Source: a virus. From it: DNA of 64,000 nt. Of this stretch, positions 1,386 to 63,854 are shown in pieces (position 1 is the first letter of the stretch; every line of letters starts with the position of its first letter). The stretch spans positions 10,760-74,759 of IMG/VR virus record IMGVR_UViG_3300031718_000003; one strand, written 5' to 3'. The notes beneath the pieces are model-generated. The model worked only from the letters and a program-made list of their open reading frames with translations. It was not told the origin of the DNA and did no database searches. The translations under genes and the position numbers were made by a program.

Positions 1386-1554
1386 GAGTGGTATGGTTCC
1401 TTTGATACAGGCCGCAGATCCCTAATTTCTTAAGGCCAGGTCTGTTGGGTTGGGATTAGGATTCCAGAAAGATAAAAATGCTTGTTGCTTCGGGGTCAGA
1501 CACAAACTGCTTTCAGCCCCCAACGTTTGCGCCTGATCTGTCAGAATAAGAAGC

Positions 1555-1977
1555 ATGAGATCAAGTTCGGATGTTCGCAGGAGAATAAAGGTGGCCCGGA
1601 ACGTTGTGAGACGGTTCGTTCGCCATACGCCGAATGCAAAGATCGTCGAGCTGCTCGATGCGGCACGTCAAGGTAAGGTCACGTGCTTTAAGGCTGGGAC
1701 CTGCCTTGTGGATAGCGTCTATGGGCGCAGGGCGTGGATGGACAGAGCTGGCTTCCACTTTGGTCAGACGACTTACCATGCCTGGGTCTTGCTTGGTTTC
1801 AGGGGGAATGAGAGATCCTTTTCTATCCTGGCTGGAGGAGACGATCGTCTGCGCAATCGGAGGCTGGTGCCTATCATTCTCGCGGAAGTGAAGCGGCGCA
1901 ACGCTATCCATTGGCATTCCCCGGCAGTTGGGCTGGCCGGCCCTGCAGGCACGACCGTACTCGTATCTTGGCAATAG
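1555..1977 (+). CDS. Hypothetical moron-like protein, antisense to the head operon
   Basis: 140 aa ORF filling the portal-scaffold gap; starts about 20 nt after a bipartite element (1488-1534). Confidence 0.5.
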   Translation: MRSSSDVRRRIKVARNVVRRFVRHTPNAKIVELLDAARQGKVTCFKAGTCLVDSVYGRRAWMDRAGFHFGQTTYHAWVLLGFRGNERSFSILAGGDDRLRNRRLVPIILAEVKRRNAIHWHSPAVGLAGPAGTTVLVSWQ

Positions 1978-1995
1978 TCCCACGCACCCATGTGG

Positions 1996-4221
1996 TTATT
2001 GTTCCCCTTGTGGCTGGCCCTGCTGTGCCTGCGCCTGTTGCTGTTGCGTAGCCATATCCTGCTGGTGCTGCTGATCGGTCTGCTGCATCCCCTGCTCGTG
2101 CTGTTGCTGTTGGTCGGCCTGCTGGGATTCCGCCTGGATGCCGACGTTGGCTTGCAAGAGATCGAGGCGATGCTTGATGGAACCAAATTCCAAGGCCGCG
2201 AGCTTCTGGGCTTCGGCGCTCTTAGCTGACAGCTCGGCGACGACGATATTGGTCGCGTTGTTCTGGCTTGCGATGCGTTCGCGGCTCTCGAGATCCAATT
2301 GCTTGGTCTCGATGATCTGGCTTAGCTTGTGAAGCTGCTGGGTCATCATCTGGATCATGGTCTGTTGCTGCTGCATCTGGGCCTGGACCTGCGGTGGAAC
2401 GGGGTCTTGGTCGCCGCTTTGTGCGACACCAGGGGGCATCAGGCGATCGGCGAGCTCCTGGGCTTGCGGGATGTCCAACATGCGAACCAGGATGTCAGCG
2501 CCGCGCGCCATCACCTGGGGCATGGCTTGCGCGAGTTGCATGAGTTGATCGGCGCCCTGCTGACGGCGAGAGGCGTAGCTCGGCCCGGTGCCGATTGTGA
2601 CGTCGTAGCGCGCGGGCCGGTGGTTGATGCCGATTTTGAAGATCCTCTGGACCGCGCCTTCCTTAAACATCTGGTTGATCTTGATCTGCTTCACCGTTTG
2701 GTCCGGGTTCACGATGTTCATGACCCGAGGCTCGGAGTAGACGTAGGGGATCAAGTCCAGCTTGATTCGCGCATCGTGCTTCATGGCGCGCGCCAGGTTG
2801 TCGTGATAATTGAAATGGGCGTTGTCGCTCTGCCTCTGCCGGGCATTGATTGCCACCCCGGACTTCTCCGGGGCGGGAGCGCCTAACGATGGATCAAACG
2901 TCGAGAGCGCGGCCTTGGTGTCGTCGGAAGCCGCCCTGATCGCCTGGGTGATCGCCTGGACGGCCGGCTCGGCGTTGATGCGAATCGGGGCCGGGATGGG
3001 GTCGTTCTGGTCGCCGATGTGTTTGTATTCGAGGTAGCTGAAGGCTTTGCGGTTCGCGTCCGCCCATGTCGCCTGATGGCCTTCGAGCTGGCCTTCTGCC
3101 ACGAGCCATTGCGAGATTGGCGCGAGGCCGATGGCTTCGGCTTCCTTCGACCGCATGTAGTCGTATTGCAGGTTGGCATCCTGGGCCATGCGCACCATAC
3201 CGTGCAACTGGCGTTTGCCGTCCTTGATGATTTCGCGCCCCAGTACCGGTACGAGCGGTATCCACTTACCCGGCCAATCGACCTTCTCGATGATGCCCAT
3301 GCCGGTTAATTTCGCCATTTTGACCGTACGCTTCTCCACTTGCCGCTCACCCAACTGGCGCATACCATCGGGGACTTTGTTCTTCGCAACTACCTTCCGG
3401 TTATCGAGAAGGACGACGGTTTCCAGGTCGGTTTCGACATACCAGTACTCCGCCACTCGCACGGCGCCGTTCGGGAACCACTCGGTCCGGACTTTGTCGC
3501 CGGTTGCCGAGAAATCGGCGAGTCCCGCTGCATGGGCGTCGGGGTACAGGTCTTCGAATACGTCCTTGTCGATGTCCTCGGTGACAAAGCAATAGCGCAT
3601 GTCCGAGTAATCGAACTGGTCTGCGGCCGGGTCCGGATAGACACAGAACGGGTTTGCGATGCGGCCGACGACGATCTTCTGCTCAAACGAGTCGTCTGCT
3701 TCGTACTCGAATAGAATCCTCCACCACGCCCGCCCGATCTGCACCGCAGGCTCGTAGGCGCTCATGTAGGCGATTTCGGCCGAGGAGTCCTGATCGATGT
3801 TGCGTAGGATGCCTTCCAGAATTTCCGCGGTATCTTTATCGGCGCCGGCGCCTACCGGGGAGATCCGCGCCTCGGGCGGCGATTGCCGCATGTCGTTGAT
3901 GACTTGATCGATACTCGGGCCGATCTTGTCGAACACGAGACAGGGACGCCCCTGACGCTCGGCCTTCATGACCGGGTCCCAGTGGTCGCCCGCGAGGAAG
4001 TTCAGTTCGCTTTGGGCTTTGATGCGCCATTCCGATTCGTAGGATTGGACGGTGCGGAATCGCTCGAGCGCCTGGTCGTGCAGGTCCTGATCGGCTTCGG
4101 AGACCGGTGCATCGCCCGATTTCACGCGGCTCGCAATTCCCACGGCCATCGGTTGGCGCACGCTTGCACTGGTGGCTACGGTGGCTAGGGATTGTTGGGT
4201 ATTAGGAGGAGAAGGAGACAA
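1996..4221 (-). CDS. Portal protein, P22-like
   Basis: 741 aa; motifs FLAGDHW, RPCLVFDKI, WPGKWIPLVPV, SGVAINARQRQ, RYDVTIGTGPSYASRRQ; Gln-rich C-terminal barrel. Confidence 0.92.
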   Translation of the reverse strand: MSPSPPNTQQSLATVATSASVRQPMAVGIASRVKSGDAPVSEADQDLHDQALERFRTVQSYESEWRIKAQSELNFLAGDHWDPVMKAERQGRPCLVFDKIGPSIDQVINDMRQSPPEARISPVGAGADKDTAEILEGILRNIDQDSSAEIAYMSAYEPAVQIGRAWWRILFEYEADDSFEQKIVVGRIANPFCVYPDPAADQFDYSDMRYCFVTEDIDKDVFEDLYPDAHAAGLADFSATGDKVRTEWFPNGAVRVAEYWYVETDLETVVLLDNRKVVAKNKVPDGMRQLGERQVEKRTVKMAKLTGMGIIEKVDWPGKWIPLVPVLGREIIKDGKRQLHGMVRMAQDANLQYDYMRSKEAEAIGLAPISQWLVAEGQLEGHQATWADANRKAFSYLEYKHIGDQNDPIPAPIRINAEPAVQAITQAIRAASDDTKAALSTFDPSLGAPAPEKSGVAINARQRQSDNAHFNYHDNLARAMKHDARIKLDLIPYVYSEPRVMNIVNPDQTVKQIKINQMFKEGAVQRIFKIGINHRPARYDVTIGTGPSYASRRQQGADQLMQLAQAMPQVMARGADILVRMLDIPQAQELADRLMPPGVAQSGDQDPVPPQVQAQMQQQQTMIQMMTQQLHKLSQIIETKQLDLESRERIASQNNATNIVVAELSAKSAEAQKLAALEFGSIKHRLDLLQANVGIQAESQQADQQQQHEQGMQQTDQQHQQDMATQQQQAQAQQGQPQGEQ

Positions 4222-4347
4222 GGCGAATTACTCAGAAAGGGGAAAAGCAGTTGATAACCGACACAAAGACAGATGATTTCTTCGGGGTCCGTGGTCGATT
4301 GCCCTCCGCGCTCGACGTTTGCGCCTAGAGGGTCTAAACTGTCAGAT

Positions 4348-4626
4348 ATGCCTTGTTCCGACTACCACGATCACGGGCCGACCCCAGAAGAGGTCCGCCG
4401 TCAGGACATCATGTGCCGTCTGGCGTGCGAGTACTGTTCGACGCTAAAGACCACGGGTAAGGAAATTCCGCTCTACGCGCGAGAGTGGTGGCAGCAGCAC
4501 GAACGTGACGATAAGGCTCGAATTGTCACAGAAGCGAAGCGCGAGCGCGTGCCTCAATTGGTGCGCTCCGGCCTTGCAAAACTGACCCCGAAGGAGTGCG
4601 AGGCGCTGGGCCTGCGGAAATTCTGA
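4348..4626 (+). CDS. Hypothetical phage protein (moron)
   Basis: ATG at 4348 just after element 4280-4326; WWQQHERDD...LAKLTPKE..ALGL pattern. Confidence 0.6.
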   Translation: MPCSDYHDHGPTPEEVRRQDIMCRLACEYCSTLKTTGKEIPLYAREWWQQHERDDKARIVTEAKRERVPQLVRSGLAKLTPKECEALGLRKF

Positions 4627-4629
4627 CCT

Positions 4630-4965
4630 TTATGAGTACCCCGTTGTATCCAGTTCCTGCGCATGCCGCCGCATCCGGCTGAACATTGGGACGCGCGTGC
4701 CGGTTTTATTGCCCAGCCACACCGATTTCGCGGTATGGGCCACGTGGTTGGACATCGCCTGCAATGCGCCTGGGTTTTTGAACACGAAAGATTTCGTGGC
4801 CTTTATTGCGTTCGGCCCCGAGCCGAAGTGGTGCGTGGCCGTGAATCCGTTCGCCGCGGGGTGAATATGGATCGAGGTCAGCTTGGGCGCGTGGACCGAC
4901 AGCACCTTTGGAGGGTGCGGAGGCTTGGCGATAGCTAGCGTGGTTTTGGGTAGAGGCGCGAACAT
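4630..4965 (-). CDS. Hypothetical protein, paralog of 5739-6047
   Basis: IHIHPAANGFTATHH...FVF resembles MEIEPADNGFVAMTHH...KVF in 5739-6047. Confidence 0.55.
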   Translation of the reverse strand: MFAPLPKTTLAIAKPPHPPKVLSVHAPKLTSIHIHPAANGFTATHHFGSGPNAIKATKSFVFKNPGALQAMSNHVAHTAKSVWLGNKTGTRVPMFSRMRRHAQELDTTGYS

Positions 4966-5080
4966 TTAAGTTCTTCCGTTTCCTTTTTTCTTCGGGGTCG
5001 GCCCGGAACTGCCATGAGCCTCCAACGTTTGCGCTCGGTCCTTTGGTTTGATACTAATCAAAAGCGAGGAAAACACAGAA

Positions 5081-5467
5081 ATGGACAACATCCCCTTGGA
5101 GGAAGTAATTGCGCGTGTCTGCCACGCCGCTAATCGGGCCTACTGCGAGTCCATGGGCCACAATTCACAGCCGCCGTGGGACGAGGCGCCCGAATGGGAG
5201 AGAAGTGTGGAAATCCGGGGCGTGCAACTTCATTTAGCAACCCTCAAAGCTGGTGAAAAGCCTGGGCCTGGGACGTGGCACGAGAAGTGGATGGAGAAAA
5301 AACGTCGCGAAGGATGGTGCTACGGCCCGGTGGAAGATGCGGTTACGAAGCGTCATCCTCATTTCCTGCCTTATGTCGATCTGCCTATGGAGCTGCGGAT
5401 GAAAAACCACATCTTTGTCGGTATCGTCGGTGGATTTTTCGAAGCGCTGGAGAGTTTCAGGAGCTAG
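5081..5467 (+). CDS. RyR-domain-like phage protein (moron)
   Basis: IARVCHAANRAYC...WHEKWMEKKRREGWCYG...HPHFLPYVDLP resembles RyR-repeat proteins; preceded by element 4990-5036. Confidence 0.7.
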   Translation: MDNIPLEEVIARVCHAANRAYCESMGHNSQPPWDEAPEWERSVEIRGVQLHLATLKAGEKPGPGTWHEKWMEKKRREGWCYGPVEDAVTKRHPHFLPYVDLPMELRMKNHIFVGIVGGFFEALESFRS

Positions 5468-5738
5468 GAAGTGGAAACTCTGGATCGAGCACCCATCCTT
5501 TCAGCACACGGCATCCATCGGCCCTGATTCGGCTGACCTCGAGGCCAAGCGGCAATTCTTCGCCGTAGTCGATCCTTACTAGCGCCAGCTGGTGGGCGTC
5601 AATGAATACAACGTTGTGCTCAATGGAATAGAATTCCGGCACTTGTCGTCGCTCAGTGGTTTGATAGAGTCCGGCCGGCAGCGTGTCGAGATCGTAGCCA
5701 GGTGCGAGCGCCTGGCGCGCAAATTCCCGCCCTCGCAT

Positions 5739-6047
5739 CTACGCCGCCTTGGGTTTTTCCTTACCCTGCGCGGGCTGCGTTTTGACGCTCTTGGCCGGCG
5801 CGGCAGCATCTTTTTCCTTTGACTTCGGTTTCTTGCCGCCACCGAAGGTGTCGTTTACGTGCGCTCCCAGGTCCTCCGAGTCCATGAACACTTTGCGTTC
5901 CGGCTCGGGGAAGGGGTCGTCTTTGGAGGTGGGGTGGTGGTGGGTCATGGCGACGAAACCGTTGTCGGCGGGTTCGATTTCCATGCGCCGTACCCCTTTA
6001 TGGGCGGCTGCTGGCTTGCGGGCTGAGGCTGTGACTACTTGTTGCAT
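5739..6047 (-). CDS. Hypothetical protein
   Basis: AAGGAG RBS upstream, 102 aa, paralogous to 4630-4965. Confidence 0.6.
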   Translation of the reverse strand: MQQVVTASARKPAAAHKGVRRMEIEPADNGFVAMTHHHPTSKDDPFPEPERKVFMDSEDLGAHVNDTFGGGKKPKSKEKDAAAPAKSVKTQPAQGKEKPKAA

Positions 6048-6166
6048 GAGGTGTGTTTCTCCTTTGAGATTTGGGTGAAGATGATTTCTTCGGGGTCAGA
6101 CAAGACTCGCTCTCGGCCATCAACGTTTGCGCCTAGAGGGTTTAAACTGAATTCAAGAGTCCCACT

Positions 6167-6448
6167 ATGAATCGCCGCCACTTCTTCGCGCTGGTTGCCG
6201 CTCTGTTCACGGGCCGGAAGGCGCTGGGCGCGACCCCGACTCCTGAGGCGTCGGTGGTCGAATACTCTTATCACCTTGTGAATGCGATGCCCGCCAACTT
6301 TCATCACTGGATAAGCCCGATGAAGCAGATGGGCCCCGAGTACTTCTTCTGTGATGGAAGCGACATCTATGTTTGGCCGCCGTTGCGGAGGATCACCGAA
6401 GAGACGAGGCCCGCGAACAGCAGGAAGAAGCCAAGCGGCGGAAGATAG
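6167..6448 (+). CDS. Small protein with twin-arginine-like N-terminus (moron)
   Basis: MNRRHFFALVAAL start; preceded by element 6088-6134. Confidence 0.5.
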   Translation: MNRRHFFALVAALFTGRKALGATPTPEASVVEYSYHLVNAMPANFHHWISPMKQMGPEYFFCDGSDIYVWPPLRRITEETRPANSRKKPSGGR

Positions 6449-6469
6449 TCGAACTTCGACGCGCTGAAA

Positions 6470-6952
6470 TTACGAGCCACTGACGATCGGCTTCTGCGCG
6501 ACCGGGTGCTCGCGACCCTTCGCCACCTGGTGGATCGGGACTACCTGCCCGTTCTTCACATGGTGGTAGAGCGCATCCGGGTCGTTCAGGGCAGATGACA
6601 ACAGGTGGTACGGCCTGCCCTCGGGATCGTGAATCACGTGGCTCCCGTCGGTGGGAAGATGGCAGTGCTCGAGCAGCTCCTGGATCGACGTGTGCTGTTT
6701 CACTGTCGCGGTCTGCCGCTTCTTGTGCTCGCCGTATTCCAGTTCGATGCGCTTCGGCGTGAAGATCTCAGGTTCTTCCTTCTTGGCTGCGCCTTCTTCA
6801 GCCAGGGCGTCACCGAGCGTCGCGGCGTCCTGTTTCAGCTTAGCGCCCGATTCAGAGTCAGGGTCAGACGGTTCATAGTCAGGGTCAGACGGTTCATAGT
6901 CAGGGTCAGGCGTTGGATCGTTCGGGTCTGGAACAGCATTTTTGTTGGGCAT
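6470..6952 (-). CDS. Hypothetical protein with DPDYEPS repeats
   Basis: AAGGAG RBS upstream; 160 aa. Confidence 0.6.
   Translation of the reverse strand: MPNKNAVPDPNDPTPDPDYEPSDPDYEPSDPDSESGAKLKQDAATLGDALAEEGAAKKEEPEIFTPKRIELEYGEHKKRQTATVKQHTSIQELLEHCHLPTDGSHVIHDPEGRPYHLLSSALNDPDALYHHVKNGQVVPIHQVAKGREHPVAQKPIVSGS
6856..6909. repeat. 21-bp tandem repeat (about 2.5 copies, AGTCAGGGTCAGACGGTTCAT)
   Basis: Directly visible; encodes DPDYEPS repeats. Confidence 0.9.
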
Positions 6953-7115
6953 TCAGGTTCTCCTTATTGGAGTTAAGTCTACTTCTTTTCTTCGGGGTCC
7001 GTGGTCATCGCACTGATCGGGCGTTCGTTTGCGCCTGATCTCTCGACCAGTCCGAACGCAAACGGCGGATTGGTGAGAGAGACAGCTACCCCGAAGCCAT
7101 GATCTTTAGCTTTAT

Positions 7116-7652
7116 CTAATCCTCCAGCACAGCCAACACATGCTGCGTGGTCTCGGCATCTTCGTGGAGGATCATATACTCCTTGCCTTCGAACATCACT
7201 TCTGAGCCTGGCCTCTGGAGGTAGAGGATGCGGTCGCCGATCTTCAGCTCCATGGGCCGACGCTCGGTATACAGGTGGCCATCAGCTCCCGTGTGCAGTA
7301 GCTCGGTGTTGTTTGATCCGCAGTGTGGGCAGTTGGCTACGGCGTGACCGAAATCATTGGGGCCGCTGACGCGTCGAATTGTGCTCGTGTAAAAAGGATC
7401 TCTATGACCACTCACATCGCTACAGTGTCTACACCACAAGCCAATGGCGCGGTCTCCCGGACCCACCGCGATCACCAGGCCGGTGCGGTAATAAACTTCC
7501 TCCTGGCGCGCCCGCTCCGGAATCCAGATTGATCCGCGCATCGCCGGCGCTTCGTCTGGGAGCACGAGCACCTGGTCTTCGAGGGGTTCGAAGGTGGCGG
7601 GGTCGAAGAATTGCCCCACGTATGCCTCGGTACGCTTATATGTGAATGGCAT
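7116..7652 (-). CDS. GroES/Cpn10-like co-chaperonin with a Zn-finger-like insertion
   Basis: EPLEDQVLV, IWIP, GLVIAVGPG, LKIGDRILY, GSEVMFEGKEYMILHE..VLAVLE; CRHC and CPHC inserted after AVGPG. Confidence 0.85.
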   Translation of the reverse strand: MPFTYKRTEAYVGQFFDPATFEPLEDQVLVLPDEAPAMRGSIWIPERARQEEVYYRTGLVIAVGPGDRAIGLWCRHCSDVSGHRDPFYTSTIRRVSGPNDFGHAVANCPHCGSNNTELLHTGADGHLYTERRPMELKIGDRILYLQRPGSEVMFEGKEYMILHEDAETTQHVLAVLED

Positions 7653-8150
7653 AACTAAAATCTACTTCATGGCTTCGGGGTCGGTGGGCAGAAACAATCC
7701 GCAACCCGCCGTTTGCGCCTGGAGCGTCGAGTACCATTGGAAACCCCGCTCTGCGCTCATTGCTCCGCGGAGATATTGCTCTCGGACTTTTGGTTCGTTC
7801 TTCACGCATGCGTCCAGGAAGTCGTGAATGTGTGCAGTAAGTTCCTCAAGGGCCGGGGGTCTCGTCAGCCCAGGCGCAAACGTTGAGCGCGGGGAGCAGC
7901 GCCGGGCGGACCCCGAAGTAATCGGCATTGCGTTCATCTTGGAGTTAATTCAGCCTCGCGAGAGCTCTCTCAACACTGGTAACCACGGATCGCTGCCAGT
8001 TTTGATCGACCATTTGAAAATAAACGCGCAGCGCTTCAGCCAAGCTCATGGTTCGAACGGCGCCGATCGAGGAATAGCCACTGCCGAATAAACCGCACCA
8101 GTAAGCTTCTGGTGGTTTGCCAACAGGCAGAATGCGGAGGCTGGGTTTCA

Positions 8151-8573
8151 TCACACACTCCGCGCATACTCCAGGCATCGGCTGTCATCTTGGCGTATCC
8201 GCTGCTGCGCCGCCCAGATAAATGCGCCGTGAATCTCGCGATGCGCTTTATCCCCCCGAGGTTTTACGCTCGCGAGCAGCCTCACGTCCTCAGGTTTCAT
8301 CGCCGCCACCTGGTCGTGGGCGAGCTGAAATACGTCGGTCGGCTCCGGCTCACGAAAGCTGAAGCCTTCCATGCGCACTGGCTCGTACACCCACTTGGCG
8401 GAGCCACTAGCGGCTTCGGCTAGAACCGCCTGCGCGGTTGCGGTCGAGAACCGGCTGTCGAGCAGCATCTGGGTGTAAGTGTAGAATAGCCAGTGCGATC
8501 GCTGCCATTCCAGCTCCTGAGCGATCAGGCTGACACGGGTTCCGCGCGTGAAGGTTGGATTTTTTTGTCGCAT
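8151..8573 (-). CDS. Hypothetical protein
   Basis: 140 aa ORF in operon orientation. Confidence 0.45.
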   Translation of the reverse strand: MRQKNPTFTRGTRVSLIAQELEWQRSHWLFYTYTQMLLDSRFSTATAQAVLAEAASGSAKWVYEPVRMEGFSFREPEPTDVFQLAHDQVAAMKPEDVRLLASVKPRGDKAHREIHGAFIWAAQQRIRQDDSRCLEYARSV

Positions 8574-8584
8574 TCGCAGCAGTT

Positions 8585-8824
8585 TTAGCCGGGTAATTTG
8601 GGTTCAGCGGCGACGGTGGCCGCCTCGGTTTCGGCGATTGTCGAGTGCGCGTTGAAGTCCTTGCTCATGACGCCCATGGCGGCAAGGCCGCCTACCATTG
8701 CGTATTTTGAAATCGCAACGAGCCAGGGCATATGCACGAACAGCTCCGGGGAGAACACTACGAAACCGAAGCTCGCAGTGATAACGGACGTTACCGACGT
8801 CTTCCAGTTCTTCCAGAGGTTCAA
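8585..8824 (-). CDS. Small two-TM membrane protein (holin-like)
   Basis: C-terminal part of the listed ORF (probable TTG start at 8824): WKNWKTSVTSV...two hydrophobic segments...SKDFN. Confidence 0.5.
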   Translation of the reverse strand: MNLWKNWKTSVTSVITASFGFVVFSPELFVHMPWLVAISKYAMVGGLAAMGVMSKDFNAHSTIAETEAATVAAEPKLPG

Positions 8825-9261
8825 ACTGAGGCCTCGGCAAGAACCAGTGCCATGGAATACAACTGGCCCGGCGATACCTCGCGCGCCAGGAAGCCGGGGA
8901 AGATTCCATCCTGTTGCAGCGCGAGCACGCAGGAACCCGAGCACATCAGATCGTTGCGCTCGTCGGGGAGAAACGGCAGCGCAAACCCGATATCGGCGGC
9001 CCAGTCGTAGCCACGGCCGGTCTGAGCCTGCGCCCATGCGCGCACTGGAGCTTCGGGATATTTCGACGGGATCTCGACAAAGTCCCAGAGCTTGTCTGAT
9101 CCGTCGAACGGCAAAAGGTTCACGGCGGGCGTTTTTTCCGCGCGCGCGCTGAACGCCACACCATCGGTAAACACCAGCTCTACGTGCGAATAGGGGGAAT
9201 GCGTGCCGTATTCGATGGCAACCGACAGGATGCCGGCGCCTTTGTGGAATGCCAGTTTCAT
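8821..9261 (-). CDS. Permuted papain-like (NlpC/P60, YiiX/YebB-like) amidase
   Basis: SPYSHVELVF (His), GRGYDW and LMCS (Cys) in permuted order; probable start MKLAF at 9261. Confidence 0.75.
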   Translation of the reverse strand: MKLAFHKGAGILSVAIEYGTHSPYSHVELVFTDGVAFSARAEKTPAVNLLPFDGSDKLWDFVEIPSKYPEAPVRAWAQAQTGRGYDWAADIGFALPFLPDERNDLMCSGSCVLALQQDGIFPGFLAREVSPGQLYSMALVLAEASV

Positions 9262-9436
9262 TGGAATTTGCCCTAAAATGGAAGAATCTGTGGCCCTTTG
9301 TCGCGGCCAGTGTTCGGGAGACACTGACACAATAAAACACAGATGAGCAATCGCATCGAATCGAACGCGGGAAACAACCTCTTCCCAAAGCCTAGTGGGC
9401 GAGCCGTCTTAATCGGGCCGGACGGCTCCAGGGCAT

Positions 9437-9637
9437 TCAAACTTTTGGATGCTGCTCCCGAATCTCAGCCTGGAAGAACTTTCCTTTCGAACCGGATTCC
9501 AGAAATCGCTTGACCTTCGCGAGTGGAATTATATGCCTGCTGACTGCGCCGCTATGCCAGTGAATGCGGACCTGGTTGGTTGCGGGATCGTGCTCGATCG
9601 CCTGGATCGCAGAGGAGTCTACGGGATGGAAGTTCAT
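9437..9637 (-). CDS. KTSC domain protein
   Basis: PVDSSAIQAIEHD...FLESGSKGKFFQAEIR, 66 aa. Confidence 0.8.
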   Translation of the reverse strand: MNFHPVDSSAIQAIEHDPATNQVRIHWHSGAVSRHIIPLAKVKRFLESGSKGKFFQAEIREQHPKV

Positions 9638-9912
9638 GAGGCACTGTCGCCGCGCGCGGCATCAGCCATCCGCTTCTTCCAGTAGGTGACGACAAACTTG
9701 ACCATGGACTCGCCAGCGATGCCGAGGAGTGCGCGTGCGCGGCTTACCTGCACCTTGACCGTAGCCACCGAAGTGCCAAACCGCTCCGCAATCTCCTGAT
9801 AGCTCAGGCCCTCCTCGCAGATCAGTTTGATGATCTCACGCTCGCGCGGGCTGAGTCCGCGCTCGTGTTCGCCGGTACGGCCATCCAGGCTGATGCGCGC
9901 ATCCCCTATCAT
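9634..9912 (-). CDS. LuxR/sigma-region-4 HTH protein
   Basis: LSPREREIIKL...GLSYQEIAERFGTSVATVKVQVSRAR. Confidence 0.85.
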   Translation of the reverse strand: MIGDARISLDGRTGEHERGLSPREREIIKLICEEGLSYQEIAERFGTSVATVKVQVSRARALLGIAGESMVKFVVTYWKKRMADAARGDSAS

Positions 9913-10202
9913 TTTACCGGCTCGACATACTCGGCGGGCATCAACCGCACGCGGTTCGCGATGATTTGGCCGACGTGATTCACTTTAGCGGGAATCTCAA
10001 TGTGCGCGAGGCCGTTCTCGATCTTGATGAGCTTGCCGATTATTTCCATGCTCGGGTCGAACGCTGTGGGACCGCGGTAGCGCACGGCATCGCCGGGCCG
10101 GAGATGCGGGTGCAGGATGAGATTCTTGACGCGCTCGGCTTCGCCCGCCTGGCGCGCCGTCCACAGTTCGGCTTGGGTTGGGGCTACCATAGATCCATCC
10201 AA
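9909..10202 (-). CDS. Hypothetical protein
   Basis: 97 aa, stop overlaps the next start. Confidence 0.5.
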   Translation of the reverse strand: MDGSMVAPTQAELWTARQAGEAERVKNLILHPHLRPGDAVRYRGPTAFDPSMEIIGKLIKIENGLAHIEIPAKVNHVGQIIANRVRLMPAEYVEPVK

Positions 10203-10290
10203 ATAAAAGACGGGGCCTTGCCTGGCAATTGATCGCGGATGGCTCGTTCGGACACTCTGCGCCGACGGCAGGTAGGGCGGAAGCCTAACG

Positions 10291-11721
10291 TCACGTCATC
10301 CAGCTCCGATCCCCGCCTGGCACATGGACAGCCGACGGCCTCGGCTGCGGCTTCGATGTCAAAGTTTTCAGACCCGTGGTGGACAGGACGTACCGGACGC
10401 AATCCATCAAATGGTCGTTTTTCTTCACGATCTTGCCCTTCTCGTCCCGATGATAGCGCGAGATCTCGCGGCGAAAGTTCTGAAGATGCTCCTGAACCTT
10501 CAACCTCCCCGATACCAGCCGCTCCCACACGATTTGAATGCCGGTCTCGACAGCGTTCTCACAGGGATGGAGCATCAGACCGGCCTTGCGGTAATGCTCC
10601 ATCAGAGAACGGCCATCCACCTGCGAGCTTTGGAGGCAGCCGGGATCGACTACGCCATGTATCCACTCGCCCCTGGCGCGGATCGCCATCGCGTGGGAAG
10701 CTGGCTCGCCGGCGCTTTGATAGTGTTCGTCGTAGAGGACCAACTGCCCGTTGCCGGGATTCTCGGCCGCCCACAAGGCCGCCGTGAGCCGCCAGCCCAC
10801 ATCGAGTGCATAGACGCGCCGCCAGGAGGCGGGAATGGGCGCGGTCTTGATCAGGAAGTCCTCTTCCGGCAGGGGATAGATGGCGCCCGCGCCGAGCGAC
10901 GGCTCGCCGAGTGTCCGCGCTTTGATCTGGTAGGCGGGAGTCGTGGCAATCAGGATGTCCTTCTCCGCCTGCTCCATGTGCGGAACGTCCTTCCAACCGG
11001 CCTGTATCCAGAATTTGTGCGCCGCGGCGCCTTCCTTCGGCTCCAGAAATCCGGTTACAACCTCACTCATGCCCTGGAGCGGCGTGAAAGTGGTGTAGAG
11101 AATCCCGCGGGTTGTGACGGTGCGAAACAGGATCTCGGTATAGATGTCCTCCGGAGGCTCTTCGTCGAGCCATGCGAAGTCCAGTGAGACTCCCTCGAAG
11201 CTCTTCCGGCCCTGCTCGTAGGTCTTCAGCCCAACGCTCGACCAGGCGCCAGAGACGTGCTTTACCCAGATCGTCTCGATCGATCCGCTGAGACCTGAGC
11301 GGCGCGGAAGCGTCTTCACGATCCGGTCCGCCGGGATCATGCCAGTGCCCTGCGCTTCGAGTGTGCCTGCGAGTTTGAACTGCACGATATTGCGAGTGCT
11401 CTCCGAGGTCGTGCCGCACGCCCAGCCCGCGGTAGGTCCACTGAAGCGCTTCCCCGTCCACCACACCGGATAATTTCCAGTTAGATGACAGGCGGTCTCG
11501 TACGCGCCCGCATCTGACTTCCCGATGCGATTCGCGGCGCAGAATAATCTTTCCTTGTACGTCGCGCCGGCGGCGAAGAATTCGAGCTGCTTCGGATAAA
11601 GCGCGCGCCGGCGCGGCCCCGTCTCCGGGAAATATCCCCGCCACTTGTTGCGCTTCTGGAAGTCCAGGGCCGCCTGAATGGTGCCCAGATCGACCATGTC
11701 CGGTAAGCTGACAACGGTCAC
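10291..11721 (-). CDS. terL: Terminase large subunit
   Basis: Walker A AANRIGKS, Walker B AWLDEEPP, coupling motif TTFTP, nuclease motifs ALDVGW and NDHLMDCVRY; probable GTG start at 11721 (ORF track extends to 11832). Confidence 0.95.
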   Translation of the reverse strand: MTVVSLPDMVDLGTIQAALDFQKRNKWRGYFPETGPRRRALYPKQLEFFAAGATYKERLFCAANRIGKSDAGAYETACHLTGNYPVWWTGKRFSGPTAGWACGTTSESTRNIVQFKLAGTLEAQGTGMIPADRIVKTLPRRSGLSGSIETIWVKHVSGAWSSVGLKTYEQGRKSFEGVSLDFAWLDEEPPEDIYTEILFRTVTTRGILYTTFTPLQGMSEVVTGFLEPKEGAAAHKFWIQAGWKDVPHMEQAEKDILIATTPAYQIKARTLGEPSLGAGAIYPLPEEDFLIKTAPIPASWRRVYALDVGWRLTAALWAAENPGNGQLVLYDEHYQSAGEPASHAMAIRARGEWIHGVVDPGCLQSSQVDGRSLMEHYRKAGLMLHPCENAVETGIQIVWERLVSGRLKVQEHLQNFRREISRYHRDEKGKIVKKNDHLMDCVRYVLSTTGLKTLTSKPQPRPSAVHVPGGDRSWMT

Positions 11722-12143: not shown

Positions 12144-12223
12144 AATGTGTTTTCCTTTTTTGCTTCGTGGTCAGTAGACTGCGCTCTCAGCGATCCGCCG
12201 TTTGCGTTCGGACCCGTCAAGAG

Positions 12224-12408: not shown

Positions 12409-12426
12409 AAATCAGCGTTGTCTTTA

Positions 12427-12463
12427 GTTGCAATATCCAGCTCACGGAAGAAGGTAGTGAGAC
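12427..12463 (+). CRISPR. Solitary CRISPR repeat (GTTGCAATATCCAGCTCACGGAAGAAGGTAGTGAGAC)
   Basis: 36/37 identical to array repeat variant 51201-51237; abuts the terS stop codon. Confidence 0.95.
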
Positions 12464-13045: not shown

Positions 13046-13049
13046 GAGT

Positions 13050-56903: not shown

Positions 56904-59900
56904 TTAGTTCAAAACCTCCACAATCAATTGCCGTGCGGTGAAGCTATTGCTTGCGCTAGCTGCCGAGAACGTCACAGTTGTTTGCAGGAACAAAGCGCCA
57001 GTAGAGTCTATGGCGCTCACAGTCGCAGTGTTGGTATCAGCGAACAGGGAATCAGCGGTAAGGTTTGTCGTACCGAGATCTATCCCAAGCAGCCCATGGG
57101 ATTCATAGGCTGACGTAGCGCCTGCTGTCTGGGTCGTGATGTATCCAGTTAGGTTGGCTGCTAGATTTGTCACCGCCGTGGCCGAAGTTGCGGTGGACGT
57201 GACACTTAATGGAACGATGCTTGACCCGGTAGCGCATCCGGATACTGTGCAAAGCTTTACAGCCAGCGTTACCGTGGGAGCTGAAGTCACAACGTTCGAG
57301 TAAGTGCCCGCCAACCATACCTTGAATGTTCTGCCGGCTACGTTCAACAGATTGGCATTCAGAGAAACCGCCATCAAGTTCTGAGCTGTGGAGACGTTGG
57401 CGCTAACTGTGACCGGAGTGACGTTCACGGCGGCTACACGGCTGACCGGCATCGCGCCGGTGTTGTTGTTGTTGACCTCGACGGCGTGCTGCGCGGAGAT
57501 CGCTTGAAGATTGTCCTGACCTGTTGATGGAGTTCCGGCGGTTCCTTCAGTCAGGCACACCGGGCCGCCTCCGGTGCCTGGAGTAGCGCAGCTTGGCGGG
57601 CTACCTGCCGATACCGGGCCGTTCGGCACTGCTAGCCCTGCCGTATCCCCAATAGTGTGAACGTTCGCGGTGGTGATGCCTTCGTCATCCAATGAGTTTG
57701 CCGCCGTCGTAGCGCTGGCGGCTTTGATCAGGTAGCCGGTCGTGAGTCCGCTCAATCCTCCACCGCCAATCGACCCCCACGTGTTCGTCGCCGTGCAGCC
57801 TTTAAACCCAGCGCTTGTGCTGTTGAATTCGATTTGCCCAGTGGAACAGGCGCCGGGGTCTGCGGAGTGATTTGGCAGCCGTACGTCTACCGCTGTGTTC
57901 GAGAAGTCTTGCAGGCCAGTCGAGTACGTATTGGCTTGATTGTTTAAAACTACAGCGGTTTTAAGGTACCCGGCATCATCGATCAGATTCGTGGACGCGT
58001 TGATGCTGAGCACGTGATTTGCGGTAAACGTGCTGCTTGGATTCAGCAACGGCCAGACTGCGGCAGTCGCGTTGTTCCACGAGCATACCGGGATATGCGT
58101 GGTGGAATTTCCGTAGCAGCCATCCACCGTGGCCACCGGAAATCCTGAAAGGGTAGCGCTCGTCTCTCCAAAGAAAAATCCGCCGCCGCCTACGATGGCA
58201 GACAAAGCTGCAGCAGGGTTGCCGGCCTGCACGGGACCGTTAGTAGCCGCAATGCCGGATGACCCGGCATAGGCCAATTGGTTACCCACATCACTCAAAT
58301 TGGCATTACTGGCTATTGATCCACCTAGAGGCGACCACAAATAATGACCCGCTGTAACTGAAGTTGGATATGCCACCGACGCCAGACCAGCCGGTATCTG
58401 GAACCACGTTGCTTGATATGTGTTGCCCGTCGGCGTCAAAGGGAATGTCATTGCCCAGCCGTTACCTGTGCCGCTCGGTGGGGTCGTGGGCAGTAGGTAT
58501 GCAGCAGACGTTACAATCGCGCCTGTGCCTACGCCCCACCCTAAAAACCCGCTCGGGTTCGCGGCGAAGAAGGCAGTTGGCAATGACGACTGCGCGCCCC
58601 AAAATGTGAACCCCGCCAGAGATCCAGCACCGATCGTTTCCGAAGACGCTCCGGCCATGTTATTGCTCGCGTCAATGGATACGCCGGATGCAACCACATC
58701 CCCGGTCGCGTTAAACTTCGGCACTGCGTTCGCTGTGAACGGCGCAATCGCGCTGGCAATCTGCGTTCCAGCGGTCCCGCTTTTCAGCGCTGAAGCTAAA
58801 TTGCTGTTTACCACTACGCCTGGCTGCAACGTAGTGACGGTAGAGCCACCAGCGTTAGCCACCGCGCCGCTCAAAGCGGGCATTGCTGTGCCTGATAGCA
58901 AGCCATTGGAATCTGTGGGCGGGATGACTGCGCTCCACCAGTTCCCCGCATCGCTCCACCAGATAGCGCACTCCGGATTTCCGCCCGATGCCGCACCCAG
59001 AAGGCTGAGAACTACGTTGCCATTCACCGTACTGGTTGTTGGCGTGTCCGTGGCTGGAACGCTGCCAGTATTGCAGTGGATGAATGAAAAATGATCCCCG
59101 AACCCTGCTGCTCCGACTTGTGGCACGGTAACGTTCGTTTGCGAAGTATTATTGGTCGTCTGAAATACAGCGCCGCGATCCGTGTTCGGAACCGTGGGAC
59201 TTGCGCCGGATTGCGCATCCACATAGGTAGTCGGCGTGTAATCCACCAAGCGAAACATGGAACCGGCGTTGTCCCATTGAATCCAGTAGCCATGTGGTCC
59301 GGGTTGAATCCGCCCCGCAGATGGTTGCAGCCCGTTCGGTGTCATAACGTTAAACGCGCCCAACGCACAGACGTTTAGAGTCGGCTGTGTGGACGTATTG
59401 GCGGTATCCACACGAAGGAAGAATTGCTGCTGGTCGGTAAGAGCAGTGAGAACCGGACTCGGGCAAGCAGCGTAATTAGTTGTGCCATTGATCGAAGTGA
59501 GCGTGTTCCAGGCGCCGGCCTGCAATGTCACAAGGCTTGGAATGACCGCCGTATTGACGGCCAAAGCTCCACTGGCAACAGCCAGCCCGAATGCATAGGG
59601 CAGCTCCGCGCTAATGGAAGAGCCCGAGGAGTGAAATGTCACGTTGAGATTCGACGATCCCGCTGCGGGGGTCGCGGCGTTGAAATTCGGGCTGGGTACG
59701 GACGAACCATTGACGCCCACCGCCGCGGTGCCGGTGGTGTTCTGGTTCAGGATCGGGAAATCGGCGGCGACGGCGATCACCGTGGTGTCGAGCGTGGTTC
59801 TCTTGACGATGCCGGTCGCGCCGGGATCGGCCAGAGCAGCGCTCGGTGGCGCGTGGCAACTGCCATCGGCCCCTAGGTAAAGAGTGCCCGAGCAGTTGGC

Positions 59901-60683
59901 GAACAGGCCGATCACGTCGGCAGCCAAAGCGTCCGAGATCGCGCCCGTGGCCGTGGTGTTCTTCACGATCCCGGTACCGAGCGCTGGCCAGTTCTGATTT
60001 GCCGTGCCGAGTGTGAGGGTCGCGGTATTCGGTACGCCCGTGCCGCCGTTGGCCGGCGGGTTGACGCCTGTGATGCTCGCTGAGGTGCCGGTCGAGTTCT
60101 GGTTCAGAATCGGAAAATCGGAGGCGGCGGCGATCGATGGGGTGCCGGCCGTATTCTTCAAGATTCCGGTAGCGAGCGAGCTGAGCGCCGTCCCGTTTAA
60201 TTGATTCGCGTTGATGATGCCGGTGCCGGAGAAGGTAAATGATCCGCCAGATCCCACGGCGAGCGCCGCGCCATTCGTGCCTGCGAGGATATTGGCCCAT
60301 GCCGTGGTTGCCGCGCCGGAGCAACTGCCGAATGCGATGGGGCCGCCATTGGTCGACGTCACACAGTAGGTTCCGGTGCCGCTCGTGCCGGTGGTCGCGA
60401 GCCCGGCGCCATTCCAGTAGGCCGCCCCGTTGAGTGATGGATTGGGAACGGTTGCGCCACCGATGGCCGTCCAGGTGCCCGGACTCTGCCTGTTGGCGGA
60501 GGCGGTGCAGGCGTAGATGTTCTGTCCTGGTGCTGCATCGGTGATATAGGCGAGCTGTGGGGTCTGGCAGGCTTGGGCGAATACCTGGGCTGAGGGGCCA
60601 ATCTGGGAGAAGATCAGACTGCTTCCGGTTTGCTGAGCCAATAGAGATAGAGGGAGTAATAAGAATGCGACAAGGATTTTCAT
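56904..60683 (-). CDS. Tail fiber-like mosaic protein
   Basis: 1259 aa, A/G/S/T-rich, internal repeats (DFPILNQNxTGT twice, TGIxKxT three times). Confidence 0.75.
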   Translation of the reverse strand: MKILVAFLLLPLSLLAQQTGSSLIFSQIGPSAQVFAQACQTPQLAYITDAAPGQNIYACTASANRQSPGTWTAIGGATVPNPSLNGAAYWNGAGLATTGTSGTGTYCVTSTNGGPIAFGSCSGAATTAWANILAGTNGAALAVGSGGSFTFSGTGIINANQLNGTALSSLATGILKNTAGTPSIAAASDFPILNQNSTGTSASITGVNPPANGGTGVPNTATLTLGTANQNWPALGTGIVKNTTATGAISDALAADVIGLFANCSGTLYLGADGSCHAPPSAALADPGATGIVKRTTLDTTVIAVAADFPILNQNTTGTAAVGVNGSSVPSPNFNAATPAAGSSNLNVTFHSSGSSISAELPYAFGLAVASGALAVNTAVIPSLVTLQAGAWNTLTSINGTTNYAACPSPVLTALTDQQQFFLRVDTANTSTQPTLNVCALGAFNVMTPNGLQPSAGRIQPGPHGYWIQWDNAGSMFRLVDYTPTTYVDAQSGASPTVPNTDRGAVFQTTNNTSQTNVTVPQVGAAGFGDHFSFIHCNTGSVPATDTPTTSTVNGNVVLSLLGAASGGNPECAIWWSDAGNWWSAVIPPTDSNGLLSGTAMPALSGAVANAGGSTVTTLQPGVVVNSNLASALKSGTAGTQIASAIAPFTANAVPKFNATGDVVASGVSIDASNNMAGASSETIGAGSLAGFTFWGAQSSLPTAFFAANPSGFLGWGVGTGAIVTSAAYLLPTTPPSGTGNGWAMTFPLTPTGNTYQATWFQIPAGLASVAYPTSVTAGHYLWSPLGGSIASNANLSDVGNQLAYAGSSGIAATNGPVQAGNPAAALSAIVGGGGFFFGETSATLSGFPVATVDGCYGNSTTHIPVCSWNNATAAVWPLLNPSSTFTANHVLSINASTNLIDDAGYLKTAVVLNNQANTYSTGLQDFSNTAVDVRLPNHSADPGACSTGQIEFNSTSAGFKGCTATNTWGSIGGGGLSGLTTGYLIKAASATTAANSLDDEGITTANVHTIGDTAGLAVPNGPVSAGSPPSCATPGTGGGPVCLTEGTAGTPSTGQDNLQAISAQHAVEVNNNNTGAMPVSRVAAVNVTPVTVSANVSTAQNLMAVSLNANLLNVAGRTFKVWLAGTYSNVVTSAPTVTLAVKLCTVSGCATGSSIVPLSVTSTATSATAVTNLAANLTGYITTQTAGATSAYESHGLLGIDLGTTNLTADSLFADTNTATVSAIDSTGALFLQTTVTFSAASASNSFTARQLIVEVLN

Positions 60684-60783
60684 AAAAACTTTTATGGCTT
60701 CGGGGTCAGACAGGAGCTGCCCTGGGCCGCCAACGTTTGCGCCTATGGCTGGGTGCGCTACGATGTACAGGGAGGGCGGACCG

Positions 60784-62058: not shown

Positions 62059-62220
62059 TTGGTTCTTATTCTAGCGCACTGAGGATCAGGCGCAAACGGC
62101 GGATTTGACCACAGGCCAGCAGGATACTCAGCCTTGTCCCCGGATAAGCAGGGACCTCCCGCGTGCCAATGGCCAGCGACAACCACTCACCCCGAAGAAA
62201 AAAGAAATATCCTGAATTTT

Positions 62221-63300
62221 TTAGCACCCACTGGTACTCATAATCATCCCATTGAGCACGTTAAACGTACATCCGGAAATATAGGGATGCACCGTGGCAA
62301 CTAATCCCCCAGCGCCTCCGATAGAAATGCTTCCGCCGCTTGTAATGAACAAGTTGGTGACGTAGGCGCTTCCAAAGGGCACTGAGCTAAGGCCAAGAGT
62401 TGACGTGCCTCCGCCGTTGCCTACGATGTTGCCTTTGATGCCGATCGCATTCGGGCCCGGGCCGCTGCTGGTCGCAGCGCCGGTTACCGCAAAACCTACT
62501 CCCCCGGAGGCATCCTGAATTTCGAACACGTCGCCATTGATATTGCCGGCGGTTTGCTTGATCGTAAAGGCAACCGCGCTGGTCGATGTAGCGTTGATGA
62601 GTGACGCGCCGGCAGAGACGACGTGCACTACACCTCCGGCGCAGAATTCGATCTGACTGGTATCGGTGCGGACCGCCATCCAGCCGTCGGTGATTCCGGC
62701 GCAGCTCGCGTCCGCTGTGGTGAAGGTTCGGTTGTAGAACGAGCCGCCGCCGCCGATGTAGATGGTCGAATTCGCACTGGATCCCACGGTGATTCCGCCG
62801 TTGAATGTGGCCATGTTCGGGAAGACCATGTTGCTGCATCCGGTCGATCCGCAGGATGCACCGTTGGCAAATGTCGCGGTTCCGGTGACGAGCAGCCCCG
62901 TGGCCGCGATATTGCCAAGCGCGGGTAGCACGTTCGAAGCGTTCAACCAGTCCACGGTCCAGACAGTCGCCCCGGTGTTGCCGGTGGCGCAAGCGCCGGC
63001 TGAGGGCGGCGCTGTGAGGACCATCTTGTAGTTCAAGGCCGAGAACCAGACGCTGGCCCGGCCGCCGGCGTCGAGAGTGAGAGGATTCGGGTTCGCTCCG
63101 AAACCGGTCGAGTCGGTGTAGGTTGCCTGTAACGTGGTCGTGCCGGCCTGATAAGAAAACAAACACCCAGCCGCGAGCGGCGCGCCGGTATTCGAAAAAA
63201 ATTGCATCTTCGGATACGGCATGATCATGAGATTCTGGGAAAACGCTGGAAATGCGGCCAGCGCGGCCAGGAGGATGAGGCGAGACAGTATGTTTTTCAT
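62221..63300 (-). CDS. Tail fiber / tailspike with head-binding-like N-terminal domain
   Basis: PKMQFFSNTGAPLAAG.LFSYQAGTTT.QATYTD...NPNPLTLDAGGRA, typical of podovirus tail appendage N-termini. Confidence 0.75.
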   Translation of the reverse strand: MKNILSRLILLAALAAFPAFSQNLMIMPYPKMQFFSNTGAPLAAGCLFSYQAGTTTLQATYTDSTGFGANPNPLTLDAGGRASVWFSALNYKMVLTAPPSAGACATGNTGATVWTVDWLNASNVLPALGNIAATGLLVTGTATFANGASCGSTGCSNMVFPNMATFNGGITVGSSANSTIYIGGGGSFYNRTFTTADASCAGITDGWMAVRTDTSQIEFCAGGVVHVVSAGASLINATSTSAVAFTIKQTAGNINGDVFEIQDASGGVGFAVTGAATSSGPGPNAIGIKGNIVGNGGGTSTLGLSSVPFGSAYVTNLFITSGGSISIGGAGGLVATVHPYISGCTFNVLNGMIMSTSGC

Positions 63301-63344
63301 GGGAAAATTGTTCCTAGGTGCCGTTCACGAAAGAAGAAGTGCGA

Positions 63345-63854
63345 ATGACAAAACTAAACGAAGCAATCCGACTAGCCGCCGAACTTCACGACGGCCAGAC
63401 GGATAAGGCGGGTGTTCCGTATATCCTGCATACCTTGCGTCTGATGGTACGCGTCAAAATCGGCGACGAAGCTAGCGAGGGAATGATGATCGCTGCCGCG
63501 CTGCACGACGTAGTGGAAGACTGCAACGTGCGGCTTGAGTACCTACGGGCGGAATTCGGCGATGCAGTCGCGGATACGATCGACGCAATCAGCCGTAGGG
63601 ACGGCGAGGACTATGAGGTGTACATCGATCGCGTTGCGCTCAACCCGGTGGCCAGGAGACTCAAGATCCTGGACCTCATGGACAATCTCGACCCGACGCG
63701 CGCGAGCACGGGCATTTTACCTATGGGCACGATTGCGAAATACAGGTGTTCCCTAGCGAGATTGATCGACGGAAAGTGGCCAGGTGAAACCGAGGAAAGA
63801 TCAGGCGCAAACCCGGTCGAGAGTTGCCGAAAGCTGACCCCGAAGAAATTCTAG
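63345..63854 (+). CDS. HD-domain protein (RelA/SpoT hydrolase-like)
   Basis: AIRLAAELHDGQTDKAGVPYILH, AALHDVVED, LKILDLMDN. Confidence 0.85.
   Translation: MTKLNEAIRLAAELHDGQTDKAGVPYILHTLRLMVRVKIGDEASEGMMIAAALHDVVEDCNVRLEYLRAEFGDAVADTIDAISRRDGEDYEVYIDRVALNPVARRLKILDLMDNLDPTRASTGILPMGTIAKYRCSLARLIDGKWPGETEERSGANPVESCRKLTPKKF

Follow-up and report, generated by a model that had tools for sequence, protein, structure and literature searches.

The 64,000-bp window analyzed here comprises bases 10760-74759 of a 74,759-bp IMG/VR phage record (IMGVR_UViG_3300031718_000003; estimated completeness 91%). This phage, hereafter G0, encodes within the window a P22-type portal protein and a T4-type large terminase (terL), together with a scaffold protein (126-1385, - strand), an exonuclease-like protein and a Gam-like protein, and it has no close relative in the phage GenBank set. 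Interspersed between its genes is a repeated two-box DNA element of ~60 bp, present in a total of ~45 copies per ~75-kb genome, which is the subject of this report. All coordinates refer to the window unless they are designated as record coordinates.

The element consists of T-N2-CTTCGGGGTC, 26±1 variable bases and CCGCCGTTTGCGCCTG, i.e., boxes of 10 and 16 bp with 26±1 bp between them. Its position-weight matrix spans approximately -2 to +61, with near-invariant blocks at T(-2)..CTTCGGGGTC.G (positions 1-12) and CCGCCGTTTGCGCCTG (positions 34-49), and weak blocks at positions 23-30 and 55-61. Arm A (CTTCGGGGT) occurred exactly 29 times compared to 0.58 expected, a number that 0 of 100 shuffles reached, while arm B was found 30 times, allowing for at most 1 mismatch, compared to 2.28 expected. 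A strict bipartite pattern was matched 31 times in the 74,759-bp record, whereas its reversed control was matched 0 times. An nhmmer profile built from 37 copies gave 42 matches in the record, 34 of which were within the window (23 on the + strand and 11 on the - strand), the long variants being additional to these; an earlier, sequence-only reading of this DNA had reported ~34 copies of a bipartite repeat with exactly this strand distribution. Arm spacing was 38±1 in 80 of 85 copies pooled from all phages. Within G0, the distance from the start of arm A to GTTTGCG was 37-38 in 32 of the 37 copies, equivalent to 36-37 when measured to CGTTTGCG. Two short G0 copies (at 7057 and 63806) have a spacing of 32, and three long ones (at 20153, 25270 and 62197) a spacing of 88-99, in agreement with the spacings of 36-38, 32 and 88-99 given previously. 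The element matches no described repeat family and is undescribed; a literature search for the arm strings returned unrelated primers only.

By exact-pattern scans, the family was located in only a few contigs of soil viruses and soil metagenomes. These include G2 (IMGVR_UViG_3300025921_000053), in which 37.6 kb contain at least 17 copies, G3, which has 6, and the contigs Ga0307474, Ga0134126, Ga0207707 and several Ga0070735. Only one to six genes are common to G0 and G2 or G3. The Ga0070735 contigs, collectively referred to as R (L149, L151, L152 and L159 among them), are syntenic with G0 and display 66-75% nucleotide identity to it. Phages with a 47-51%-identical portal carried no copy in the 20 kb surrounding the portal gene. 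Arm variants are genome-specific (GGGGA in G2, GGGGTCTG in R), and genome-specific subfamilies of the element exist, with spacers within G2 and within R being slightly more alike than those between genomes. The copies, partial copies and solitary arms in the window are as follows.

1485-1536, + strand: element copy, ~100 nt upstream of the scaffold gene (126-1385, -); ortholog in L159
4276-4329, + strand: element copy, upstream of the portal gene; ortholog in L159
4585-4593, - strand: solitary arm A
4987-5038, + strand: element copy, left end of a 770-bp G0-specific insert (4966-5738)
6084-6136, + strand: element copy, divergent gene gap
6987-7038, + strand: element copy, left half of a back-to-back pair; ortholog in L149
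7052-7100, - strand: short copy (spacing 32), right half of that pair; the relative has ~430 bp of small open reading frames (ORFs) here instead
7669-7722, + strand: element copy, before the Cpn10-like gene 7116-7652
7870-7922, - strand: element copy
12160-12210, + strand: element copy, arm A = CTTCGTGGT
13770-13799, + strand: partial copy, arm B only
16199-16252, + strand: element copy, sense, 92 nt upstream of the NusG-paralog gene
19151-19205, + strand: element copy, 9-12 nt before the start of 18723-19142; ortholog in L152
20153-20262, + strand: long variant; arms 99 apart, the spacer containing a 62-nt insert that forms a hairpin
24477-24530, + strand: element copy
24734-24785, + strand: element copy, at the 3' end of 24723-25016
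25030-25080, - strand: element copy, arm B followed by GAGGG and the ATG of 24723-25016
25270-25368, + strand: long variant (arms 88 apart)
26251-26261, - strand: solitary arm B, followed by GGAGGG and ATG
27453-27501, - strand: element copy, arm B ...GCGGG
27721-27774, + strand: element copy
28288-28339, + strand: element copy, 18-21 nt before the start of 27698-28270
30798-30849, + strand: element copy
34534-34584, + strand: element copy
34795-34846, + strand: element copy, left half of a back-to-back pair
34860-34912, - strand: element copy, right half of that pair
35803-35855, + strand: element copy, 1 mismatch in each arm
36479-36534, - strand: element copy
37076-37128, + strand: element copy, supplies the last codons of 37065-37511
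38947-39000, + strand: degenerate in-frame copy inside the exonuclease-like gene 38723-39679
43071-43124, - strand: element copy, sense in a rightward operon
45692-45744, + strand: element copy, antisense, between the HerA-like and Cas12-like genes
51976-52020, - strand: copy with degenerate arm A, just after an array of clustered regularly interspaced short palindromic repeats (CRISPR)
60694-60745, + strand: element copy, 11-15 nt before the gene for a 1259-aa protein; one boundary of a swapped gene; ortholog in L151
61175-61228, - strand: element copy, other boundary of the swapped gene; ortholog in L151
62086-62197, - strand: long variant, sharing ~98% identity with 20153-20262 over a stretch that begins at arm A and extends 17 nt beyond arm B
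63801-63849, - strand: short copy (spacing 32)

Copies concentrate at gene junctions, as the sequence-only reading had stated. Relative to gene boundaries obtained from a codon-usage gene model trained on G0, 72% of copies were positioned within 75 nt of a confident boundary compared to 30% of random points (p 7.5e-8), and 3% were deep inside genes, compared to 55% at random. None was found in the portal, terL, three large tail genes or the IS1595, TnpB and IS1-like genes of the resident insertion sequence (IS) elements, which likewise accords with the earlier description. An in-frame copy that had been assigned to a single-strand annealing protein (SSAP) gene does exist, in degenerate form, within 38723-39679; the only PHROG hit of this gene, however, is 'exonuclease', not SSAP.

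When the element is read from B' to A', 22 of the 37 copies are traversed by a long upstream ORF, with all three frames being used, and this ORF usually stops 6-30 nt past A'. An A-rich stretch typically follows A', and in most copies a ribosome-binding site (RBS) and a co-directional start codon come next, the latter at 9-40 nt. The claim that copies read in this direction often supply the last codons of one gene and precede the RBS of the next is therefore borne out. A repeated peptide or small ORF was nevertheless rejected as an explanation for the repeat, since the A-to-B frames are inconsistent, while reading from B' to A' involves all three frames, with no variation at third codon positions within the arms, indicating that the arms are conserved at the nucleotide level.

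Unpaired copies situated between co-directional genes displayed a sense:antisense ratio of 13:3 in G0 and 20:9 over five phages (p 0.06). Back-to-back inverted pairs, arranged (A B)(B' A') and separated by 14-60 bp, are present at 6987/7052 and 34795/34860, with three more upstream of the window. Within the structural (late) region orientation strictly alternates over a run of 11 copies (permutation p 0.013), and the leftward gene blocks of this region each have a sense copy 5' and an antisense copy 3'; long same-orientation runs occur elsewhere in G0, and both orientations are found genome-wide. Divergent and convergent gaps also hold copies, and arm B there often runs directly into GGAGG and a start codon. 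Over positions 1-20000, sigma70-like promoters were not above shuffles (3 versus 5.3 expected), and intrinsic terminators were ~2 standard deviations fewer than expected from shuffles (12 versus 21.9). Neither promoter-like hexamers nor a stem-loop were found inside the element. Readings of the arms as sigma70, sigma54, extracytoplasmic function (ECF) or sigma32 promoters were rejected because the spacing fits none of them, a judgment made by eye rather than by a test.

Six G0 copies have orthologs in R. They lie upstream of the scaffold gene, the portal gene, 6470-6952, 18723-19142 and the gene for the 1259-aa protein, the sixth being downstream of an endolysin-like gene. In 6 of 6, G0 and R have identical TTnCTTCGGGGTC and CGTTTGCGCCTG, in contrast to the spacer and the intergenic flanks, which are practically impossible to align. 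Since neutral decay at the G0-R divergence would have destroyed the arms, this comparison, our strongest single result, indicates that both boxes and the distance between them are under purifying selection in place, at each locus. The invariance of the arms argues for a cis-function, and against a role that is purely selfish or purely driven by evolvability.

A repeated regulatory site, acting as either RNA or DNA, had been named in the sequence-only reading as the main alternative to recombination. The six orthologs with invariant arms point to a selected cis-function and in that respect support it, but the RNA form of the idea fared poorly. Rfam, in which a match had been considered as something that might explain all copies, gave 0 matches in the 64 kb at gathering score, and a tRNA scan was also empty. 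The consensus fold of 37 copies had an alifold energy of ~0, the per-copy minimum free energy (MFE) z-score averaged -0.3 to -0.4 on both strands, which was non-significant, and mutual information across 85 copies from six phages revealed no complementary covariation. Taken together, the absence of a fold, of a folding z-score and of covariation in these copies indicates recognition of sequence rather than structure. A structured or linear mRNA signal, such as a processing site, a translational operator or a nut-like site, would explain why most unpaired copies are in the sense orientation just upstream of an RBS; read-through RNA across the back-to-back pairs could fold into imperfect hairpins of the RNase III type, and the insert of the long variant is itself a hairpin. 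Given the results above, and the presence of both orientations in mRNA, we consider such a signal highly improbable.

There are also signs that copies have been duplicated as units. A 125-bp long variant is found at three loci (20153-20262, 62086-62197 and record coordinates 3425-3523), with similarity that begins at arm A and stops ~17 nt past arm B, and with unrelated flanks. The spacer of this variant contains a 62-nt self-contained hairpin (TGGCCATTGGCACGCGGGAGGTCCC...), located at 20175-20240, 62108-62175 and record coordinates 3445-3505. A related TGGCCATTGGCA motif forms the loop of a back-to-back pair at record coordinates 7129/7277, and a similar piece is present in L152 at 3262-3344. 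Near-identical spacers also occur at distant loci, e.g., 7673 and 25033.

This discrete copy unit and these spacers, the slightly higher within-genome spacer similarity of G2 and R, and the occurrence of the element in phages that share few genes would all suit a selfish mobile element akin to a miniature inverted-repeat transposable element (MITE), without phage function and tolerated only at gene boundaries; the back-to-back pairs even resemble elements with terminal inverted repeats. We nevertheless hold this to be very doubtful, since copies evolving neutrally would not have retained their arms across the G0-R divergence, yet 6 of 6 are intact. Moreover, neither target-site duplications nor direct flanking repeats were seen in the copy alignments, single copies are without terminal inverted repeats, a cognate transposase is not apparent, and the arms are unrelated to the ends of the three resident IS types (IS1595, TnpB and IS1-like).

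Bacterial repetitive extragenic palindromic (REP) sequences, bacterial interspersed mosaic elements (BIME), Correia and MITE-like repeats are similar to the element in that they are short, interspersed, located at gene ends, sometimes present as inverted pairs and copied as units. In contrast to REP, BIME and Correia repeats, the element is found on phage contigs only, its single copies are non-palindromic and it is not accompanied by a target duplication. A survey of 401 sampled Acidobacteriota genomes, the probable host phylum (see below), gave 5 single matches compared to 1 in the control, and the matches to bacterial genome contigs, among those listed, were single, at chance level and without profile support, so that a host REP was rejected. 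Since the element was not found in the sampled genomes of the host phylum, it represents a phage signal.

The sequence-only reading had concluded that the copies are recombination or exchange sites that define mobile single-gene cassettes, and had suggested that breakpoints in gene content between relatives be compared with their positions. Gene content was compared between G0 and R over the alignable regions. At the inverted pair 60694/61175, G0 carries a DUF6197 gene where R has a similarly sized but unrelated one. The two elements are conserved, as are the genes on either side; homology picks up again at the B arms, and both swapped proteins end in a tail encoded by the element. At 7052, an inverted extra copy in G0 corresponds to ~430 bp of small ORFs in R, and the reverse situation is observed at 19206-19510. 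The suggested coincidence of breakpoints and copies thus held at the swap and at these two alternating loci, but not elsewhere: the 770-bp insert at 4966-5738 has a copy at one end only, with the empty junction of R being without one, and the content differences at 17797-18722 and 8574-9436 have no copy at their G0 boundaries. Since copies fill a large share of the gene boundaries in the compared regions, this mixture is not clearly above chance. Contigs of the source run (a DNA run, probably of the source sample, and the only public run in which the phage was found, with no RNA run listed) contained no clean excision or inversion joints over 19000-38999; the joints that were present are short-sided and located at element copies, as repeat cross-mapping gives, and weigh neither way on excision. 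Recombination at the copies happens at least occasionally, although it may not be their purpose.

A candidate enzyme for such recombination is encoded in the window.

17152-17796, + strand: tyrosine recombinase, 214 aa, catalytic domain only, FimB/Xer-like

This is the only tyrosine recombinase of G0 and the best-conserved protein that it shares with R (83%) and G2 (64%). It scores 58 bits with the integron-integrase model, for which the cut-off is 265. Homologues were found in 34 viral loci, of which only the G2 contig carries the element, the others having unrelated iterons or palindromes. The many element-less phages that encode a homologue include portal relatives. A protein identical to the recombinase is recorded on a 91.6-kb contig, suggesting that the true genome may be longer than the record.

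If the copies were site-specific recombination sites bounding exchangeable gene cassettes, worked by this recombinase or by another enzyme, one would expect non-homologous swaps bounded exactly by an inverted pair, as at 60694/61175, and small genes that alternate with an inverted extra copy; the alternating run of 11 in the late region, the 125-bp unit at three loci and the recombinase common to G0, R and G2 are likewise consistent with this idea. We regard it as unlikely, however. The two arms do not constitute an inverted repeat, no hairpin is formed, and because the spacer is variable there is no common crossover region. The two content differences lacking the element, the one-sided insert and the many element-less phages with a recombinase homologue also speak against it, while the source-run contigs, in which only repeat-caused joints were present, do not alter the balance. 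Furthermore, second-order selection for exchange would not keep 6 of 6 orthologous copies intact. What stands of the original inference is hence the one swap bounded by an inverted pair and the unit present at three loci, set against content differences without the element and no excision junctions seen.

Known cassette systems had been judged not to fit the element, and our comparisons uphold this view. Integron attC sites and the pdif sites of Acinetobacter (XerC/D) are similar to it in that they mark cassette boundaries, have a variable middle (attC) or alternate in orientation (pdif; matched by the run of 11 in the late region, but not by the long same-orientation runs elsewhere), and are accompanied by a tyrosine recombinase. 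Unlike those of attC, the arms of the element are non-complementary and form no hairpin, and the G0 recombinase, consisting of a catalytic domain only, falls far below the integron-integrase cut-off. Cassettes with attC are in one orientation behind attI/Pc and depend on an IntI with an extra domain, whereas copies of the element are in both orientations genome-wide. A pdif site is 28 bp, with two 11-bp arms and a 6-bp spacer; the element, with its boxes of 10 and 16 bp, has no such 11-6-11 Xer architecture. The promoter-early stem-loop (PeSL) cassettes of T4-type phages carry repeated regulatory motifs that flank small accessory ORFs and coincide with breakpoints of module shuffling. Whereas a PeSL combines a sigma70 early promoter with a stem-loop, the element has neither. 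The fuller proposal that the element and the 214-aa recombinase might form an undescribed phage gene-cassette system, in which inverted two-box pairs bound single accessory genes that are swapped, emptied and refilled, with the sites doubling as expression signals, appears unlikely to us, and so does its corollary that the back-to-back pairs would be emptied cassettes.

The stoperators of Cluster A mycobacteriophages (the L5 gp71 sites) reportedly comprise tens of asymmetric intergenic copies with genome-specific variants and an orientation that tracks transcription. They are similar to the element in having tens of asymmetric copies in short intergenic spaces and variants specific to each genome. 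The copies might, by analogy, be dispersed operator or roadblock sites of a phage repressor that silences the whole genome in lysogeny, with elongation being blocked at every gene boundary. The partial orientation bias of the many asymmetric intergenic copies, the invariant arms with their genome-specific variants and the appearance of G0, whose recombinase and several IS elements make it look temperate or plasmid-like, are consistent with this. Stoperators, however, are single 13-14-bp boxes, whereas the element is 4-5 times longer, has two boxes 38 bp apart and frequently forms back-to-back inverted pairs. No repressor was found, the small proteins of the divergent early region are without a helix-turn-helix (HTH) match, and copies do not cluster at the early promoter region near 39900. 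Dispersed operators of this type therefore seem quite improbable.

A second candidate trans factor, one that would act on transcription, is encoded directly behind a sense copy.

15583-16107, - strand: specialized NusG paralog (UpxY/LoaP/RfaH-like)

The protein is full-length (Pfam NusG, E 4e-16), with UpxY as its best NCBIfam model (88.9 bits), followed by LoaP and RfaH, while the housekeeping NusG model scores far lower. Members of this family were present as 3-6 paralogs in 4 of 5 Acidobacteriota genomes tested, with one weak match in the fifth, and this multiplicity suggests that the host phylum is probably Acidobacteriota. Specialized NusG paralogs act via cis sites in the leaders of long operons (PMC7819879, PMC7593976). 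Like the element, the ops/JUMPStart sites of RfaH and the sites of UpxY and LoaP are short conserved cis-elements that closely precede genes within a leader. JUMPStart likewise has two conserved blocks and a length of ~39 bp (PMC7819879), and in G0 the specialized paralog is encoded right behind a copy.

We tentatively favor the view that the element is a phage-lineage-specific, short interspersed two-box DNA site recognized by protein, which punctuates transcription units and has the NusG paralog as its best candidate partner; we consider this plausible, albeit short of probable. Host RNA polymerase would be modified or re-licensed at the element on entering the next gene block (read B' to A', 10-40 nt before the RBS and start codon), the best candidate factor being the UpxY/RfaH-like NusG paralog of the phage itself. 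The element would thus be analogous to the ops/JUMPStart leader sites, but genome-wide, with opposite-orientation copies at operon ends and back-to-back pairs acting as boundaries. Being repeated, and occasionally undergoing copying or conversion as units, the copies would also become breakpoints for small-gene swaps; this would be a by-product, and recombination secondary.

Several observations weigh against this punctuation model. The trans factor is a candidate only, and the NusG paralog was not found in the available fragments of the other element-bearing phages (G2 and G3 among them), which are 42-62% complete. Among the viral contigs searched, only one other carries a relative of the paralog (37% identity), and it is without comparable repeats. 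About 1/3 of the unpaired copies are antisense, many copies lie in divergent or convergent gaps, and two boxes 26 nt apart cannot share one transcription bubble. In contrast to ops/JUMPStart sites, which occur once per operon, there are ~45 copies per 75 kb, and there is no sequence similarity; the E. coli ops sequence (GGCGGTAGnnTG) had 2 matches at no more than 1 mismatch compared to 4.35 expected, and is therefore not enriched. Finally, a discrete unit copied to three loci and the genome-specific subfamilies also fit mobility.

To our knowledge, dispersed boundary repeats have been described from only a few phage groups. Each known case revealed a mechanism, with stoperators leading to elongation silencing and PeSLs to modular shuffling. 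The element represents a new repeat family from uncultured soil phages with probable Acidobacteriota hosts, one that combines an unusual two-box architecture with purifying selection in place and signs of unit-wise copying, and the same genome encodes a specialized NusG paralog, a minimal tyrosine recombinase and a Cas12-like CRISPR system. Should the link to the NusG paralog hold, the copies would form an ops-like network spanning a whole genome, the first of its kind in a virus; should the link to the recombinase hold, they would belong to a phage cassette system resembling integrons.

With respect to other genes, the 930-bp content difference at 17797-18722 holds two rightward small genes and is absent from L152. 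With a good sigma70-like promoter at 17813-17841 followed by a terminator-like hairpin at 17866-17882, it looks like a classic promoter-terminator moron without the element. Of the proteins of G0, only one of 175 aa (32636-33163) was seen in both G2 and G3 as well; no family matched it, and its Atlas model is poor. The divergent early intergenic region together with a 44-aa gene (39922-40134) displays 69% nucleotide conservation with the otherwise unrelated G2, making it one of the few stretches conserved between the two at the nucleotide level, and it may represent a shared regulator or operator. The gene at 7116-7652 (- strand) encodes a 178-aa protein composed of a Cpn10 (GroES) domain and a zinc ribbon. 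The 1259-aa protein (56904-60683, - strand) has a signal-peptide-like N terminus (MKILVAFLLLPLSLLAQQ) and is without a family match; its gene is followed by those for two more large unmatched proteins, presumably tail components. G0 also carries three IS types, which is unusual for one phage.

22915-23853: IS1595-family transposase
33149-34305: TnpB (IS605 OrfB) element, with 22-nt inverted repeats at its ends (GGGACTTATATACATGACTCCC / GGGAATTATCTATATAAATCCC)
48698-49546: IS1-like DDE gene

The CRISPR system of the phage includes a Cas12/TnpB-like protein of 578 aa (45794-47530, + strand) with a TNB domain and a TnpB-family score of 47.8 bits, and a HerA-like ATPase gene lies upstream of it. 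Its 37-nt repeat, GTTGCAATACCCAGCTCACGGGCGAAGGRAGTGAGAC, forms arrays at 47545-47729 and 50848-51962, with three repeats directly downstream of the Cas12-like gene and 16 more 3 kb onward. A relationship between the element and CRISPR was rejected, since this repeat is unrelated to it, no spacer matches it, and the flanks of the solitary repeats are unlike the arms. Those solitary repeats, two identical ones at 12427-12463 and 13302-13338, lie on either side of an HTH (terS-like) gene (12464-13045). An array spacer at 50958-50994 matches this same terS-like gene at 12939-12973 over 35 of 35 positions, indicating that a CRISPR spacer targets the phage's own genome.

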